A DNA stretch of 29,964 nt. Origin: a virus (taxonomy: Duplodnaviria; Heunggongvirae; Uroviricota; Caudoviricetes). Each line of letters starts with the position of its first letter. Position 1 is the stretch's first letter. This document shows, one piece after another, positions 2,200-20,635 of the stretch. The notes under the pieces are model-generated. The model had not been told where the DNA came from, made no database searches, and worked only from the letters and a program-made list of their open reading frames with translations. The stretch lies in IMG/VR virus record IMGVR_UViG_2778261393_000002, one strand, 5' to 3'. A program made the position numbers and the translations under genes.

Positions 2200-2466
2200 T
2201 TATTGCTGTTTTGTTTTTTCCGGTTTCCATCCTGGGTGCCAATCGCCACGGATCCACGCCTGAATCTCCGAGAGACGATAGCCAGCGGCACGTTCACCAA
2301 TCTTAATACGTTTTGGGAACTTACCTGTCTTTTCCAGTTTCCAGCGTGTTGAATTTGCCAGCGTAGTAAGTGCCACGCATTCTTTTTCACGAATGACACG
2401 ATCAATATCCGGCATTGCAGTAAAATCTTTTTCATCAACAAGTGAATAAACTGACATATCAAACAA
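2200..2466 (-). CDS. alpA: AlpA-family phage transcriptional regulator, excisionase-like
   Basis: Translation contains DRVIREKECVALTTLANSTRWKLEKTGKFPKRIKIG, typical of AlpA/Vis-type winged-helix proteins. Sits immediately downstream of and overlapping the integrase stop. Exact start uncertain (M1, M4 or M18). Confidence 0.75.
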   Translation of the reverse strand: MFDMSVYSLVDEKDFTAMPDIDRVIREKECVALTTLANSTRWKLEKTGKFPKRIKIGERAAGYRLSEIQAWIRGDWHPGWKPEKTKQQ

Positions 2467-3700
2467 CCTCTTTACTCAGTTCAATAACGTTATTATTAAA
2501 TCCGGCTATCGTGTTAAGGTAATTAACCCACATATTAAGAACCTCAAGTTTTTTCTTTACATGCTTGCTTTTATTATAAACACCCGCCACACCTTTAACT
2601 TTATGACCAAGCAGAAGCTCTACAATATAAGGATCGGCACCCATATCGTTAAGCATTGTTGAAAATGTACGCCTGAAATCATGTATGCACCACAGACCAT
2701 TTACATCATGCCCTAGCCGCCTGCATATCCGGCTTGCTGCTCCTGTTATTGTCGCTCGCTTCAGTGATCTACCGATAACACAATCCCGGTGCTTTGTTTC
2801 CGCATAAAGATTAATAACCCATTGTTTTATTCCATCAGGGACTGGTCTTACAATAACCTCGCCGTTCTTGCTGTGCTCTTTTGGAACTGTCCAAATCCAG
2901 TTTTTTAAATCCCATTCTTCCCAAGTGGATAACCGCGCCTCCTGCTGACGGCAACCAAACACCAGGCAGATAACCATAATTCTTCGGTTATGTATTGATG
3001 AAAGGGTAAGTAAATTGTTGCCATAGGCATAAGACCATACGTCAGCGGCTTCATTAATACTCAGAACACGATCCCTTATGCCTGCTGAACGTCCAACATA
3101 ACTAACGTTAATATCACCGAATGGATCGCAACTAATGTATTGCCTGATACGGCAAAAACGTAACGCCTGTTTAATATCAAGAAAAATAGCACCAGACATA
3201 ACAGGAGCATTTTTTTTAATTCTGTCAAATACAGTAAGCCAGGTATGCAATTTGCACTGTTCTATAGCCATATCTCCGATATATGGAAAAATATGCTTTT
3301 CAAATCTTTTTATTAAATACTCATGCTGCTTTCTGGCTGTCCTGGCGTGATTATCGTACCAGTAAAGCACCGCATCCCTTACAGTTACAGGGCGCATGTT
3401 TTTTTCAGCTACAAGTTTTATTTGTCTGCGAGGATCCAGATTTTCCGCCAGCCATTCACGGCACTGGTCGCGTAATCTCCTGGCGGCTGCCAGAGACATA
3501 TCAGGATAACGCCCAAGGGTCAGCCATACCGGAGGGGCATCCCTGCCGCCAATACGATAGTAAAAAACGAAACTAATTCCCCCAACCACGCTTACACGAA
3601 CAGATAGCCCCCGCCCATCAGCCATGATTTTTTGTCTGTCCTGCGGCTTACCTGCAAGACTTTTCAGAAGTTTGTCAGTCAGTTTATTCTCGATAGCCAT
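2459..3700 (-). CDS. int: Tyrosine integrase, P4-like
   Basis: 413 aa from MAIENKL (start codon 3698-3700). Phage-integrase catalytic region visible (HDFRRTF ... LLGHK ... VYN). Paired with alpA as in P4-family elements. The listed ORF extends 24 codons further upstream to 3772. Confidence 0.85.
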   Translation of the reverse strand: MAIENKLTDKLLKSLAGKPQDRQKIMADGRGLSVRVSVVGGISFVFYYRIGGRDAPPVWLTLGRYPDMSLAAARRLRDQCREWLAENLDPRRQIKLVAEKNMRPVTVRDAVLYWYDNHARTARKQHEYLIKRFEKHIFPYIGDMAIEQCKLHTWLTVFDRIKKNAPVMSGAIFLDIKQALRFCRIRQYISCDPFGDINVSYVGRSAGIRDRVLSINEAADVWSYAYGNNLLTLSSIHNRRIMVICLVFGCRQQEARLSTWEEWDLKNWIWTVPKEHSKNGEVIVRPVPDGIKQWVINLYAETKHRDCVIGRSLKRATITGAASRICRRLGHDVNGLWCIHDFRRTFSTMLNDMGADPYIVELLLGHKVKGVAGVYNKSKHVKKKLEVLNMWVNYLNTIAGFNNNVIELSKEVV

Positions 3701-3718
3701 ATGTAGCCTACACGTCAA

Positions 3719-3772
3719 TTTGCAATACACACCCCATCCAAACGCCAACTTGCAATACACATTGCAATACAC
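3719..3772. repeat. Three direct copies of TTGCAATACAC upstream of the integrase start
   Basis: Copies at 3720-3730, 3750-3760 and 3762-3772. The last two are tandem with a 12-bp period. They lie about 20-70 bp upstream of the int start codon. Confidence 0.6.
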
Positions 3773-4716: not shown

Positions 4717-4925
4717 AGCCCCACTCCTGCCGGGCCACGACGCCGTCCGGATACACCCAGCGCACTTTCCAGCTCTTCAATATACTGACGCAGTTCACCA
4801 ATTGTCGCCCGCGAATACTGAACCTGACGCCCGTCCTTGCTGACGGAAACCACAGCACGTCCGATCATCAGTTCATGTAACGCCCGGCGGGCATCGCATA
4901 GCATTTCATGCGTATAAATCATCAC
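4713..4925 (-). CDS. W: Head-tail joining protein, lambda gpW-like
   Basis: 70 aa. ARRALHELMIGRAVVSVSKDGRQVQYSRATIGELRQYIEELE ... RRRGPAG matches the lambda gpW pattern. Position between terminase large subunit and portal as in lambda. Confidence 0.75.
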   Translation of the reverse strand: MMIYTHEMLCDARRALHELMIGRAVVSVSKDGRQVQYSRATIGELRQYIEELESALGVSGRRRGPAGVGL

Positions 4926-6845
4926 TTATCCTCCACTCAGAGCAGCCGCGATTTCTTCAATAGTCATTTCATCGTCGTCCTGTTCATCTCTTCTGGCGCG
5001 GGCCAGTGCATCCAGATCCAGTTGCCACCGCTGAACGGAAATGCGCAGCGCTGCATAGGCATACACCAGACAGTCCAGAGCTTCATTACGCCGTTTTCTG
5101 GCATCCCACTGGAGTTTCACCCGCCCGTTCACAACTTTTTCAACCAGCTCTTCTGCCACGAGTTGTTTAGCTTCAACATCAGAAAAAATGTCCGGGTTAT
5201 CCGGAAAACGGAAGGTATACGGTGCGACTTCACTGGCAGATACCACCGGCAGGGCAAAACGCGCATACAGCATTTCCTTGACGGTATCGGAACCCACCTC
5301 ACACAAAAACACCCCACGCTGGTTTCGCTTTTTTGGCATGGTGATCACCGGCTTGCCGTACACCGACGCCCCTTTGATGGGGAGCACAAAAAAAGTGCCG
5401 TGTTTTCTGGATCGCTGATACACAATGTCCTGGTCAATACCACCGGTATCCCAGCAGACGCGGGAAATGGAAATTTCAGTGCCATCTGCATGACGGTATT
5501 TTTTCCGGATCACGGCATCAACGCGTTTAAGGGTGTCCTCATCTTCCGGTCTCCCCATGATGATCTGCTTGTCAATCAGAAAAGCTTCTTCGCCAGGAGC
5601 CCAGCCCCAGACATAAATCTCATAACGGTTTTTCTGAGAGTCGATCCCTGCGGTCAGGTAAACCACCCGCAGGGGAACCTGCGCATCATAGTGGCAGACT
5701 TTTTCCAGCAATAACTCAAAGCTCAGTTTTTCTGCCACAGCCTCTTCATAAGGCTCCCCCAGCGTGGTGTTAATGAACGTCTTGACGCCATTCGGATCCT
5801 TCAGTGCATCAAGCCAGTCATAAACAATCTGTACCCAGGTGGTGAACGGGCTGTATGCCGTCCAGATGTGGTACGAGATTGAGCGCGGTGGCGGGATTTC
5901 CTCATCACCGGCGCTGTAAAATGTCAGACCGTCACGCGTCCACATCCCGGTATTGTCACAAATCCACCGCCCGTCGGTCTGGTCAAGTTCCGACTGACGG
6001 ATCGCGCAGCCATTATGTTCACACAGGTAATACACCGTCTCCGGCTTGCCCTTCTCCCATTTCAGGCCAAAGGTTGTCGCATCATCGCCAAACTTCAGAT
6101 ACTGGGCTTCACCACAATGAGGGCATGGCACATAAAACCGCATAAAATGTGCAGATTCGTTCGCGGCTTTTTCAATCTGGCAAAAACCTTTAATTTTGGG
6201 CGTTGAGCCGCGTATGGATTTAGGCCATACCGAACCTTCGATACGCTTATCGCCAAGCAGAGTTGGTGAACCTTCTTTTTCCACATCCGGTTCAAACGAG
6301 GAGAGTTCGTCATAGCAGACCACATCCACAGATTTTTCACGGTAGTTTTTGGCAGCAGCTCCGCCCAGACACCAGAATCCCACACCGGAGGAGAAACGTT
6401 TCAGGGTAAGCGTGTTGTCCCGATGTTTTCTGCCAAACCACGGAGCCAGCTCCAGTAATACAGGAACGTCTCTTATCGTTGGTTCGACATGGGATTTCAT
6501 AAAATCTTCTGCCGCAGAATCTGTCGGCTGAAAAAGCAGGCTGTTACGGGATTTGTGTTCAATAAAATAAGCCTCCACCCCCAACAGCATTTTGGTGTAA
6601 CCAACACGCGCCGATTTAATCAGATTAACGGTGCGGATCCGGTCATTCCCCATGCTGTTCATGATGGCAACCTGAAACGGCAGTGTTTCCCATTGCCCGG
6701 GAGTATATGAAGACTCTTTTGGCAGATAATAATGCTGATCAGCCCACTGAACTGTCGTCAGTGGTACCGGAATATTGAGAGATACAAGCCCTGTTGCTAT
6801 CGCACCGGCTGCATTAGCTGCCTTCTGTGCGTCTGAAATCATCAA
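4926..6845 (-). CDS. A: Terminase large subunit, lambda gpA-like
   Basis: 639 aa, co-linear with lambda gpA along the whole length ([94 protein letters not shown]). Confidence 0.95.
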
Positions 6846-13458: not shown

Positions 13459-13612
13459 AGGATGATCCTTTTTCTATGTGAATCATCACCACTGCTGACG
13501 CCAATCAGTATGGTGGTGAACTGTGCAGGGTTGGCGTAACCGGGAAAAAGGAACCGGCGCGGATCGCTCCGCCCCCACACAGCCCACCATTGAGATGTGA
13601 CAGTGCAAACGA

Positions 13613-13637
13613 CAATAAAAAAGACGCTGGCGCGTCT
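13613..13637 (-). terminator. tR'-like Rho-independent terminator downstream of Q
   Basis: Stem AGACGC (13622-13627) and GCGTCT (13632-13637) with 4-nt loop, then a U-run on the minus strand (plus-strand AATAAAAA 13613-13620). About 95 nt downstream of the Q stop, as expected for a late-promoter leader terminator. Confidence 0.5.
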
Positions 13638-13731
13638 GTTGTCGCCTTTTTCATCCGGGACGCCAATCCCGACGCCAGATTTTGCTGGCGCGTGAGGAAT
13701 ATAGCCCCGGACAATGTGTCTGGTCAAGCTC

Positions 13732-16656: not shown

Positions 16657-16812
16657 TTACTCCTCAGGTTCGTAAGCTGTGAAGACAGCGACCTCCGTCT
16701 GGCCGGTTCGGATTCGTACCTCGCAGAGGTCTTTCCTCGTTACCAGTGCCGTCACAATGACGGTTAAACAGATGACGATCAGGGCGATTAACATCGCCTT
16801 TTGCTGCTTCAT
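16657..16812 (-). CDS. hokD: Hok/Gef-family type I toxin
   Basis: 51 aa MKQQKAMLIALIVICLTVIVTALVTRKDLCEVRIRTGQTEVAVFTAYEPEE with AAGGAG SD, matching HokD/RelF as recalled. An overlapping upstream frame (to 16869) is the mok-like reading frame. Confidence 0.85.
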   Translation of the reverse strand: MKQQKAMLIALIVICLTVIVTALVTRKDLCEVRIRTGQTEVAVFTAYEPEE

Positions 16813-17023
16813 AGCCTGCTTCTCCTTGCCTTTCGGCACGTAAGAGGCTAACCTAGATTTGCCGTTCATAGATTGAGCCTCAGATTAATGTTAAGCGTCT
16901 TGCAGGACGCGTAATGTTAACTGGGGCTTTTCTCTATCTGCCTTTGGTGTTCATGCCTGAGACAGATAGCCTCAAGCACCCGCAGCCATTCTACTTAACT
17001 CCCGTTACCTCGCCAATATAAAA

Positions 17024-17113: not shown

Positions 17114-17399
17114 GACAACCTCCTGTATTGGACGTACACCAGTCCTGATAAATATGAGGCTGTCTCATCATTGATGAGATACAACTATTGGGTATAGTTT
17201 CTGTGATTTTGTTCTGTAGAAATGGAACACAACAACCAGTCACCACCAGCACTTCTTTAAATACGCCAAGTCCGACGCAAGCTAACCTTCTAGTCCGCTT
17301 TGAGCGAGAAGCGGGCCTTTCGACAACCATATTTAGATGAATAGTGGGCTAGGAATACTTTAGCAATTACATTGCTAATATCAATATAAGTAGTAGATT

Positions 17400-17433
17400 C
17401 AAAAAAAATAAGCCACCTAAAAAGCATGGCTTA
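17400..17433 (-). terminator. Rho-independent terminator ending the AT-rich cargo cassette
   Basis: Stem TAAGCCA (17409-17415) and TGGCTTA (17427-17433), followed on the minus strand by an 8-nt U-run (plus-strand A-run 17401-17408). 13 nt after the stop of the 417-aa ORF. Confidence 0.6.
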
Positions 17434-17445
17434 ATTGCAAATAAA

Positions 17446-18699
17446 TTACATTTTATCAATTTCAGAAATGATCCTATCAATTTCATCAATGCTTGCTTGA
17501 ATTGTTAGATTATTTTTTATTATCTCAAGTAATTCTATTGCTCTTCTTTTGGGCCTTGATGACACCAGTTCTGAATTTGCTCTTTCATTCTCCACGAACA
17601 ACCGTGAGAGAGCCATCAATTGATTACTATTTAACACATCTAAAAATGGTTGAAGTACTAAATGTGCATCAGATCTTCCCCAGTAATTCCCCACCCAAAC
17701 AGTAAGTATTTCTTGATATACATCTTCAAATGCAATAGATGGAACATGAGGTCCAAATTGTATAAGTGCCTTGGCTGCTCTTTCTTCATCATTCCAGCCG
17801 TAAGATGTATCCTTAGCTTTAGCTAGCTGTTTAACCGCATGTCTGTATAAACTTGCCCTAGCAGCATCAGGTATAAATTTCACACCATTAACTTTTACTA
17901 AAGTCTCTAAAATTCTTATTTTTGCTCCTTTATCCTCACTTGTATCCGATTCGGGCTCCAGCATAAATGAGTGATATCTTTCCCCCGCTGTTTTTTTAAG
18001 GTCATCATTAGATCTTTCCCATGCTTGTTCAAACAACTTGCTAGCATTAACATAAGCAGGATTTTCCCCCTTAGTTATTAAATCCAATAAAAATCCAAAT
18101 GTTATTCTTATATCAGCTTGCTTAAATGCTCTTATTTGATCTTTAAGTAAGTCTATGCTCTCAATTGATAGTTCAGATTTTTTTATGGGTTCAAATAATC
18201 CAGATGGCGAATGTCCAGGGTCTGGCATATCAGATTCGAATAAATTCTTCTGGAGCATAAGAGCCAAAGCAAACACATCCTCAGACTCTACTTTACTATC
18301 ACTTGCATGGGCTGGAGAGGCATGGTTTCTCATCCAATTGATCATTTCTAATGATTTTCCAGCTTTCTTATGCAGAACCCCTAATTTGGTGGCTCCACTT
18401 ATTAGCACTAAATCATCTACACCTGACCATCTCTCGTTTATTGTTTCACCATCTTTATCATATTTTTTACGACCACTATCATCCTTTATTGCGGAAAGGA
18501 ATAAGTCTAAACCATAAGCCTCAATTCGCCGCCTAAGATTATGAATGGATGCATTCCATATATCTAAAAGAGCATGATCAGGGAAGCCAGAATCTAACAA
18601 CTTTCTAGCTTGCGAAAGGAATTCTATTTCAGTATTAACTGTTGCAGGAAAATTAGTTGTTGATGGCGAGCTTAATAAAACCGGGAGATTTTTTGACAT
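17446..18699 (-). CDS. Hypothetical protein, 417 aa (cargo gene B, candidate defence effector)
   Basis: Long uninterrupted ORF in an AT-rich segment with SD AAGGAAA upstream. No family recognised. Contains an R-x6-H motif (MRNHASPAH) of the kind seen in HEPN RNases. Confidence 0.8.
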   Translation of the reverse strand: MSKNLPVLLSSPSTTNFPATVNTEIEFLSQARKLLDSGFPDHALLDIWNASIHNLRRRIEAYGLDLFLSAIKDDSGRKKYDKDGETINERWSGVDDLVLISGATKLGVLHKKAGKSLEMINWMRNHASPAHASDSKVESEDVFALALMLQKNLFESDMPDPGHSPSGLFEPIKKSELSIESIDLLKDQIRAFKQADIRITFGFLLDLITKGENPAYVNASKLFEQAWERSNDDLKKTAGERYHSFMLEPESDTSEDKGAKIRILETLVKVNGVKFIPDAARASLYRHAVKQLAKAKDTSYGWNDEERAAKALIQFGPHVPSIAFEDVYQEILTVWVGNYWGRSDAHLVLQPFLDVLNSNQLMALSRLFVENERANSELVSSRPKRRAIELLEIIKNNLTIQASIDEIDRIISEIDKM

Positions 18700-19312
18700 T
18701 GAATTTCCTTTAAGTAAAAATTATAATCTATGTCTTTGTGAACAAATTTACACGATATTGTAACCTTGCAGGTGCAAGAAGTAGTGTTCAAATAAATACG
18801 TGAAGAGAAAAAATCCGCCATGACAAAGCTATACACTATTCCCAATTCTTAAAAAATTCAATATGTTTAAAAAATTAATTTTCAAAACTAGCATCCTAAT
18901 ACTCTAAACACACCTATATACAACTAAGGATATGAACAGTATCCTTTTATAGAAGGAGTCTGATCCCTACAGATTTAGAGATTTTAATGTTTGTTAACTT
19001 CCGCCTATGACACAGAGGTGCTGTTGCAGCCCTAAAAACCTTATGTTTTGTTCAAGTCAGAGCTATACGACGCATCGTCGAATTCAATGCCCAAGCAACG
19101 GATTGTGCTTGCCAGTTTCTTATGGTTCAACAGAGGTTCAATGATTAGTATGCTGTAAAGCAAATCTTCGAGACAAAACTTCTCTACCCCCCATGAAAAA
19201 TTTCGGTTGAATTGCCTGGGTGATGTGTGCCGGATAGCTCCAACTCGAGACTGAAGCATGAAGTCTTTACTATGAAAATTAGCAGACTGTATACGCAGCC
19301 TGCTAGTTTATG

Positions 19313-20434
19313 TTAGAGCTTATAAAGTTCAATTAATCTGGATTTTTCTCTGTCAAATTCTTCATCAAGATTTGAGAAGTCTGGAAGTGTAACCATTAAA
19401 TCCTTAAGTTGATGAATAACATTCCAGACATCGTAATGAATAAAGGGATTTAAGCCAATTACATTCCCCTCATCATTATTTTTAGATTTCCCTACACCAC
19501 ACAATTTGATGAATTTGTTGATTGCAGTTGTTTCATTCCAGTCCGAGACAAAAAGAAGCAAGGCAGATACAGCCAAAAGGGGGTTATTTTTTTTAACAGC
19601 GGATATACCCCTGATTTTCCTAAAAAGAAATTCGTGATGCCTGGTTATTTTTTGTGCAACTCTTATCGTTGCTTCATATTTTTCTTTAAGCAACCTTCTA
19701 TCATAAACCTGATAACCTCGATCTCGTGCTACTAATCGATGTGCTTGTTTAGTAAATGTGGTACTATTCACAAGATTATAGAAAACAGAATTATTTTCAT
19801 TAGTCATGTCGATCATCAATGATGGATATTTGAATCTTAACGAACGATACACTTCATCGTTTATATCAAACCAGGATTTATTTTTCCTCTCTTCATCTAC
19901 AATATATTTACTTTCTCCCTTACGGGAATACATGCTGGCCCTTATTAGATTGATCATGTGAGGGCTATAGTTAACAGAAAAAGTGCCTGACTGGCGTAAT
20001 TCTGTAAACCATTGCCGCATGTTTCGAATATCTTCCTGATTGAACTCATCATGTTCAATACCTCTACATACAAGCTCGCGAATTATACTTGTAATCTCAG
20101 AACCTGAGGTGCCGAATTTTATAAAACCATCCCTTGATGAATCTATTTGCTTATCATTACCACTGTAATGATCGCAAAATACTTTGTGTGCATCAGTTCC
20201 GTCTTTTGTTCTAAACGAAAAATGAGATTGGCTGACTATCTTATTTGTTCTTTTCGAATAACCTTCTGAAACAACAATCGCACCGCTTACATTGCAAATT
20301 GGGCACTCTGCATCAAAGGCAACAAATTCCTTGAAATCACTGAAATTGAGTGCGTTATCTGATGAGTAATGGTTTAACAATTGAACCATGTCCAATTCCT
20401 TTTTGAATGTACGAGAATAGACCGTAATTGCCAT
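19313..20434 (-). CDS. Hypothetical protein, 373 aa (cargo gene A)
   Basis: Start taken at MAITVYS (codon 20432-20434) with SD AAGGGAG 7 nt upstream. No family recognised. N-terminal Cys/His cluster (ECPICNVSG ... HKVFCDHY). Confidence 0.8.
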   Translation of the reverse strand: MAITVYSRTFKKELDMVQLLNHYSSDNALNFSDFKEFVAFDAECPICNVSGAIVVSEGYSKRTNKIVSQSHFSFRTKDGTDAHKVFCDHYSGNDKQIDSSRDGFIKFGTSGSEITSIIRELVCRGIEHDEFNQEDIRNMRQWFTELRQSGTFSVNYSPHMINLIRASMYSRKGESKYIVDEERKNKSWFDINDEVYRSLRFKYPSLMIDMTNENNSVFYNLVNSTTFTKQAHRLVARDRGYQVYDRRLLKEKYEATIRVAQKITRHHEFLFRKIRGISAVKKNNPLLAVSALLLFVSDWNETTAINKFIKLCGVGKSKNNDEGNVIGLNPFIHYDVWNVIHQLKDLMVTLPDFSNLDEEFDREKSRLIELYKL

Positions 20435-20635
20435 TTGAACTCCCTTCATCATAATTTTGGTTGTATGAAATATTATCGCATAAAGATACTAATGAGCCAG
20501 TAATATAACTAGAAACGACTTTTTGTGGTTCAGCGAACTAGACGTCCGCTCCTGGCACAAAGCGGACAACCACGCTAGCTCTACCCTGTGCCACAAAATG
20601 TCAATTTGCATCTGAACTAATGCACTTTAATCTCG

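Follow-up and report, generated by a model that had tools for sequence, protein, structure and literature searches.

Does the 417-amino-acid (aa) protein that a lambdoid prophage carries as cargo belong to the HEPN endoribonucleases, and if so does it act as a single-gene defence against phages? The gene occupies 17446..18699 on the minus strand of the virus record IMGVR_UViG_2778261393_000002 (Caudoviricetes), whose whole stretch of 29,964 nucleotides is referred to here as the window. An earlier note on this DNA had read the protein as a possible HEPN-type RNase from its R-x6-H motif. The analysis supports this reading, in that the motif is conserved and lies at a HEPN-like position of the predicted fold, from which we infer the activity. 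The full proposal, a solo abortive-infection HEPN nuclease, stands at roughly even probability in our estimate.

If true, the proposal would enlarge the solo HEPN abortive-infection nucleases by a new family of very wide distribution; this class only recently gained mechanistic examples (Tha in 2024 and HepS in 2026). The 417-aa family is without annotation in Pfam, NCBIfam, PADLOC or PHROGs, and therefore defence-system finders miss it in every carrier genome, including the prophages of pathogenic E. coli. The confidently modelled and strongly conserved C-terminal domain would offer a tractable system for asking how one polypeptide couples the sensing of infection to HEPN activation, and a protein of 417 aa is small enough for direct biochemistry and structure work. 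If the protein is inert or unrelated to defence, it is one more hypothetical prophage moron. Here we compute its fold, the position and conservation of its motif, its lack of a partner gene, and its mobile and patchy distribution at low guanine-cytosine (GC) content, and we propose a mode of action.

A conserved R-x6-H motif

The 417-codon open reading frame (ORF) at 17446-18699 was confirmed. On the minus strand, a strand that the earlier note had not given, the ORF list and the translation show its ATG at 18697-18699 and its stop at 17448-17446. The plus-strand frame over the same positions is closed by many stops. The start is common to the same-length homologues in an alignment of 33.

The motif had been reported correctly. 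Positions 18307..18330 (minus) translate to RNHASPAH, that is R124, six residues and H131, and the string quoted at the time, MINWMRNHASPAHASD, corresponds to residues 119-134. R124 and H131 are the proposed catalytic Arg and His, and a polar Asn (N125) directly follows the Arg. The occurrence of R-x(4-6)-H alone is not beyond chance, because 80% of 5000 shuffles of the protein, which contains 22 Arg and 10 His, carry at least one match. What goes beyond chance, as judged from the alignments, is the conservation of the R124..H131 motif and not its mere presence.

All 33 close homologues (57-94% identity) share the block E118-M-x-N-W-M-R-N-H-A-S-P-x-H131 without change. In a wider set of 82 sequences, made up of the query and 81 distant representatives, R124 is kept in 69/82, N125 in 71/82 and H131 in 70/82, with the consensus MRNxxSAAHP around the motif. 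These three are the best-conserved polar positions of the N-terminal domain in the wider family, and the polar residue after the Arg is N125 in all 33 close homologues. H126 is found in only 40/82, so the conserved pair is R-x6-H rather than R-x-H, and R124-x-H126 was rejected as the relevant pair.

Predicted fold and probable HEPN membership

AlphaFold2 models the protein as all-helical except for one small hairpin, which agrees with its earlier description as helix-rich. The whole-protein model, built from the alignment of 33 sequences, has a predicted local distance difference test score (pLDDT) of 90.2 and a predicted template modelling score (pTM) of 0.77. When the first 165 residues are modelled alone the secondary structure is unchanged (pLDDT 90.6, pTM 0.86).

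In these models the N-terminal HEPN-like domain covers residues ~20-160 (18220..18642, minus). It has the four-helix up-and-down core of the HEPN superfamily, with helices at residues 22-36, 40-62, 111-126 and 139-154, a loop at 127-138, and the insert expected between helices 2 and 3 (residues 63-110, short helices and a beta-hairpin). HEPN domains are defined by an Rx4-6H motif at the end of helix 3, with a polar N, D or H after the Arg and occasional six-residue spacers, and many but not all families have an acidic residue in helix 2, typically in Ex3[KR] (PMC3710099). In the predicted model helix 111-126 extends two residues beyond R124, and H131 is placed inside the 127-138 loop. This is the place of the HEPN active site, as judged from the helix positions of the model. 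Four HEPN features therefore coincide: the motif spacing, the motif position, the polar residue after the Arg, and the insert between helices 2 and 3.

Foldseek searches with the isolated domain place 2q00/2jpu (template modelling (TM) score 0.63 by target length) and 2hsb (0.56) near the top, together with SO_3166, the MntA-HepT toxins, MtlR and 7ae8. With two methods applied to two models, HEPN chains come out at or close to the top, and the structural matches include 5yep and 7ae2. Comparison with HEPN families, which the earlier note had suggested as a check, thus held on its structural side, where the ranking favours a HEPN-like predicted fold, and failed on the profile side, where sequence and profile searches of Pfam, NCBIfam, PADLOC and the PDB sequences found no significant similarity to a recognised HEPN family.

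The profile searches, with several features of the models, weigh against the assignment. The 417-aa protein has no match in Pfam, NCBIfam or PADLOC at E <= 1, including the PADLOC-DB 2.0 families AbiJ, AbiU, ApeA, PD-T4-2 and others. Neither the 33- nor the 82-sequence profile matched any PDB sequence above noise. The best Foldseek E-value for the domain is 0.35, which is not significant, so the structural result is an agreement in ranking only. Four-helix bundles match one another easily. R124 and H131 would coincide with the Arg and His that catalyse cleavage in HEPN enzymes of solved structure, a match judged here from helix positions and short of a residue-level superposition. The acidic Ex3[KR] of helix 2 is not evident in the family: E60 is invariant among close homologues and present in only 18/82 of the wider set, where the conserved helix-2 positions are W48, N/D49, L55 and R/K56. 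Finally, about 13 of the 81 full-length distant representatives are without the motif Arg and His and retain both domains. These sequences (P0185, P0227, P0239, P0240, P0243, P0247, P0248, P0250, P0251, P0256, P0261, P0263 and P0268) may be an inactivated or repurposed sub-branch.

The weak matches below threshold are recurrent. Among family members they are to Abi_C (3/33 and 3/82), DUF4145 (2/82) and HEPN (1/33), and they are suggestive of HEPN and short of proof. Ten distant relatives gave no Pfam match. The only matches of the 82-sequence set in PADLOC are seven single ones at E 0.007-0.07, one of them to AbiJ at 0.07, and in PHROGs the protein matches only phrog_27609, labelled 'unknown function'.

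A chance similarity between helical bundles, with the conserved R..H block serving an unrelated role, would account for the lack of significant scores. It would leave to coincidence that HEPN chains come first or near first by both methods and on both models, that four independent defining features of HEPN occur together, and that the only recurrent weak Pfam matches are Abi_C, DUF4145 and HEPN. We regard it as very unlikely. On the models, the N-terminal domain is probably a true HEPN domain with a motif of the active type.

The C-terminal domain

Residues 165-417 (17449..18207, minus) form an all-helical domain in the model, with pLDDT mostly >90, for which we propose a sensor or regulatory role. 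The mean pairwise identity of the close family is 0.59 in this domain versus 0.73 in the N-terminal domain, and that of the wide family is 0.23 versus 0.30. Many polar and aromatic residues are nonetheless invariant among the 33 homologues, for example in F201-G-F, Y300-G-W, Y328-Q-E and G337-N-x-W-G-x-S.

In the PDB, Foldseek matched the whole model to nothing but generic alpha-solenoids (PP2A B56, importins), with E >= 0.01 and TM 0.2-0.3. Matches to generic helical repeats alone count against the HEPN assignment, and the whole-model search is uninformative on the C-terminal domain specifically. A second, degenerate HEPN domain in the C-terminal half, as in a Cas13-like dyad, was rejected: hhalign between the two domains gave a probability <= 1%, and the second motif match of the protein, R281..H287 (R-x5-H), lies mid-helix with a His that is not conserved.

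Some helical bundles related to HEPN bind a ligand or a protein, such as the nucleotidyltransferase-associated HEPN, sacsin and MtlR. The N-terminal domain could be an inert bundle of this kind, with any activity residing in the C-terminal domain. We consider this very unlikely: the close family shows no change at R124, N125 or H131, which lead the polar positions of the domain in the wider family and stand in the predicted model where a HEPN active site lies, and the C-terminal domain resembles no known enzyme fold.

A solo gene on mobile elements

The window is a lambdoid, Rac/Qin-like prophage with genes for a CI-like repressor, YdaT, DUF977, DUF968, RusA, Q and terminase gpA. Calling the gene cargo was justified. 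It lies in a cassette of about 36% GC (17315..20545; GC 0.32-0.39 versus ~0.5 in the flanks) within a prophage of about 50% GC, at a site where phage Evi has other genes, an acetyltransferase and a regulator. The cassette edges, at ~17315 and ~20545, were set by comparison with other records. Similarity to phage Evi breaks off at 17314 and starts again at 20542; the part shared by Serratia montpellierensis is limited to 17301-20568 (99% identity); and E. coli 2018-166 has extra cargo at this site.

Other carriers include mobile elements. In Cyanobium prophages a gene of the 417-aa type is an opposite-strand moron between portal and terminase, and in a Pseudomonas viridiflava prophage the gene lies between the replication and lysis genes. 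In a Lentisphaerota genome it comes immediately after hsdR in an island with type I restriction-modification, PrrC, Mrr and integrase genes, and in a Burkholderia island it is beside H-NS. Further neighbours are Type IIG restriction-modification, PrrC, MADS, integrase and TraG genes, mixed with housekeeping genes. With the window site and the plasmid relatives described below, these loci identify the gene as mobile cargo.

The second gene of the cassette (19313-20452, minus) encodes a hypothetical protein of 379 aa without a Pfam, NCBIfam or PADLOC match (phrog_12525, unknown function). It accompanies the 417-aa gene in E. coli and Serratia, so that in Enterobacterales a single 3.2-kb cassette carries both. 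Pairs of a HEPN toxin and an MNT antitoxin occur commonly, and the structural matches named above include 5yep and 7ae2. The 417-aa protein might then be the toxin of a toxin-antitoxin pair, with an antitoxin supplied by the 379-aa neighbour, by a small ORF alongside or by an RNA upstream. This we hold to be extremely unlikely. All-against-all clustering of 587 ORFs from 39 loci found no shared neighbour family outside near-identical enterobacterial islands. TRF and blastn searches of the upstream and downstream regions found no tandem repeats of a repeat-RNA antitoxin and no conserved non-coding flank. No MNT-like gene was found near the 417-aa gene, and nucleotidyltransferase is absent from the 25 most frequent Pfam families among the neighbours. 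The 379-aa gene occurs alone beside a tyrosine integrase in E. coli SF-468 (H14), has a terminator-like hairpin of its own at 19305-19280, and belongs to a family far narrower than the 417-aa family (82 protein clusters, mostly Enterobacterales). It may represent a further cargo or defence candidate, independent of the 417-aa gene. The 417-aa gene has no partner gene in the 39 loci, which speaks for genomic independence only and not for functional sufficiency.

Distribution of the family

The family comprises 435 clusters among 5.8 billion proteins, almost all of 413-420 aa, all hypothetical and none with a Pfam domain. The sources include Providencia, Vibrio, Acinetobacter, Burkholderia, Pseudomonas, Lentisphaerota and Cyanobium. 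A scan of species-level genomes added homologues of 48-66% identity in Campylobacterales, Syntrophales, Bacteroidota, Acidobacteriota, Anaerolineae, Treponema, Saccharibacteria, Wolfebacteria, Kaiserbacteria and Firmicutes. A HMMER scan of 1.84 billion representatives gave 421 at E <= 0.001, including a branch of longer proteins (470-495 aa) with matches to both domains.

Distant relatives of ~470 aa (22-25% identity) are present on 84 plasmids, 47 of them conjugative, and are all annotated as hypothetical; Escherichia accounts for 25 of the 84, Klebsiella for 12 and Shigella for 11. Two others are at 4803-6221 of a C. perfringens plasmid (L040), among HicB and Phd antitoxin genes, and at 4797-6212 of a Pantoea plasmid (L041). 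In Aliamphritea spongicola (L036, 8001-9251) the homologue is split into three ORFs of 184, 112 and 82 aa and is thus a pseudogene. Truncated copies also occur in Pectobacterium and Klebsiella.

Parts of this distribution speak against a role in defence. Many neighbourhoods consist of housekeeping genes (aconitase, AcrB, ClpB, LptD), and for this reason an enrichment in defence islands is not established. Identity across phyla is unusually high (48-57%) and the length stays at 417 aa, a pattern not typical of proteins that sense the fast-evolving proteins of phages. None of 50,697 isolated phage genomes has the gene.

Some of these observations would fit a real HEPN RNase that acts on the RNA of the host or of the element, for example in lysogeny regulation, host shut-off or RNA processing. 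The homologues among housekeeping genes have no defence neighbours, the cross-phylum conservation agrees with a conserved cellular substrate or partner, and no match to a defence model was found anywhere in the family. On the other side, the gene is patchy, with the cassette in 13 of 5426 complete E. coli genomes; its GC content is at least 0.04 under that of the flanks in 21 of 29 loci; copies have become pseudogenes, as in L036; and the window site is a cargo hotspot where unrelated genes alternate. Its absence from isolated phages further argues that it is not part of a phage life cycle. We consider a non-defence RNase unlikely.

Proposed mode of action

For the preferred reading, single-gene abortive-infection defence on mobile elements, we infer the RNase activity, oligomerisation, trigger, RNA target and defence phenotype as follows. 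The lysogen would produce the protein in inactive form. Residues ~20-160 would form the HEPN-fold domain with R124-N125-x5-H131 as a metal-independent endoribonuclease site, and a homo-oligomer would bring two R..H motifs together, as in other single-HEPN proteins. The conserved helical domain of residues 165-417, in a regulatory or sensor role, would sense a cue of phage infection and switch the protein on. The active protein would then cut cellular RNA (tRNA, rRNA or mRNA), and phage growth would stop.

In a bolder form, which we think quite unlikely, the family would be a pan-bacterial solo HEPN immune nuclease (Candidate Phyla Radiation, Firmicutes, Bacteroidota, Spirochaetes, Cyanobacteria) whose large and unusually conserved C-terminal domain monitors not a variable phage protein but a universally conserved cellular component or an infection-induced signal. 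Such guard-type or ligand-gated sensing would explain the 48-57% identity and the fixed length of 417 residues across phyla.

Comparison with known HEPN systems

HepS is a solo HEPN protein encoded in Gifsy-1 of Salmonella, in an accessory slot after the replication genes; it is an inactive tetramer that is switched on by a tail-tip protein and cuts tRNA anticodon loops (PMC13043305). The 417-aa protein likewise has one predicted HEPN domain and no partner gene, lies in a lambdoid prophage accessory slot after the replication genes, has homologues across distant bacteria and is proposed to be inactive until triggered.

Tha-1 and Tha-2 of Staphylococcus aureus prophages are HEPN RNases that cause abortive infection when triggered by minor tail proteins (PMC11087260). 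They share with the 417-aa protein the prophage location, an R-N-...-H motif, a second domain without an assigned fold and a structural match to 5yep (PMC11087260). However, Tha (301 aa) has its HEPN domain at the C-terminus and the 417-aa protein at the N-terminus; the spacer is four residues in Tha and six here; outside HEPN, disorder is predicted for Tha, in contrast to the confidently modelled helical domain here; and Tha has a cognate inhibitor, Ith (PMC11087260), of which no counterpart was seen.

The HEPN Abi families include AbiJ, AbiU2, AbiD/F, Abi_C (PF14355), DUF4145, Ymh and C6orf70/DUF4209 (PMC3710099). As in the 417-aa protein, their core has Rx4-6H where helix 3 ends and is fused to family-specific helical domains; solo genes among them are often near restriction-modification operons, and six-residue spacers are documented (PMC3710099). 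However, their Pfam and PADLOC profiles all miss E <= 0.05 on the members tested, and as far as profiles tell the C-terminal domain is not among the described partner domains.

The HepT/MntA-type toxins carry a catalytic Rx4H RNase motif. SO_3166 (5yep), 7ae2 and 8xdj are among the best structural matches of the N-terminal domain. These toxins are single-domain proteins of ~130 aa neutralised by an adjacent MNT antitoxin, in contrast to a protein of 417 aa without an MNT or other conserved neighbour. By sequence, the 417-aa protein falls outside HepS, Tha and every profiled Abi family. Spacer length and the large conserved helical domain set it apart, as does domain order in the case of Tha.

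Gene signals and other features of the window

The exact 417-aa protein is recorded in UniProt as A0A8H9XQD3, uncharacterised, from E. coli/Enterobacteriaceae. No mention was found in the papers searched for the RefSeq accession of a near-identical E. coli protein or for the peptide string, and the protein was not found in the part of the DefensePredictor supplementary tables that was covered. A candidate Shine-Dalgarno-like AGGA (18706..18709, minus), read from the sequence, lies 6 nucleotides before the ATG. A TATAAT hexamer (18720..18725, minus), 21 nucleotides upstream of the ATG, is a possible -10 element of the gene's own promoter, and a weak one because a consensus promoter scan found no full -35/-10 pair there on the minus strand.

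A repeat search showed that the cassette is bounded by an imperfect inverted repeat of 35 nucleotides (77% complementary), with its left arm at 17280..17314 and its right arm at 20546..20580. Both arms are small hairpins in their own right (CCGCTT..AAGCGG and CCGCT..AGCGG). The arms belong to the conserved phage backbone: the left arm is present in phage Evi and E. coli 2018-166, and in phage Evi both still flank a different cargo. The stretch common to Serratia and the window ends inside the arms. They could mark a boundary or serve recombination in the exchange of cassettes at the hotspot.

Right next to the cassette is a type I toxin-antitoxin locus of the hok/sok type (16657-16981, minus), made up of a Mok/Hok-like ORF of 70 aa and of a sok RNA (Rfam RF01794, 110 bits). 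Just downstream of the Q antiterminator gene, 13509-13704 (minus) contains the isrK small RNA and the C4 antisense RNA with an a1/b1 target, a P1/P7-like immunity RNA module seen in some lambdoid prophages. The genes for a tyrosine integrase (2459-3772, minus) and the terminase large subunit (4926-6845, minus) are only ~1 kb apart, which suggests a truncated prophage or a second, abutting element.
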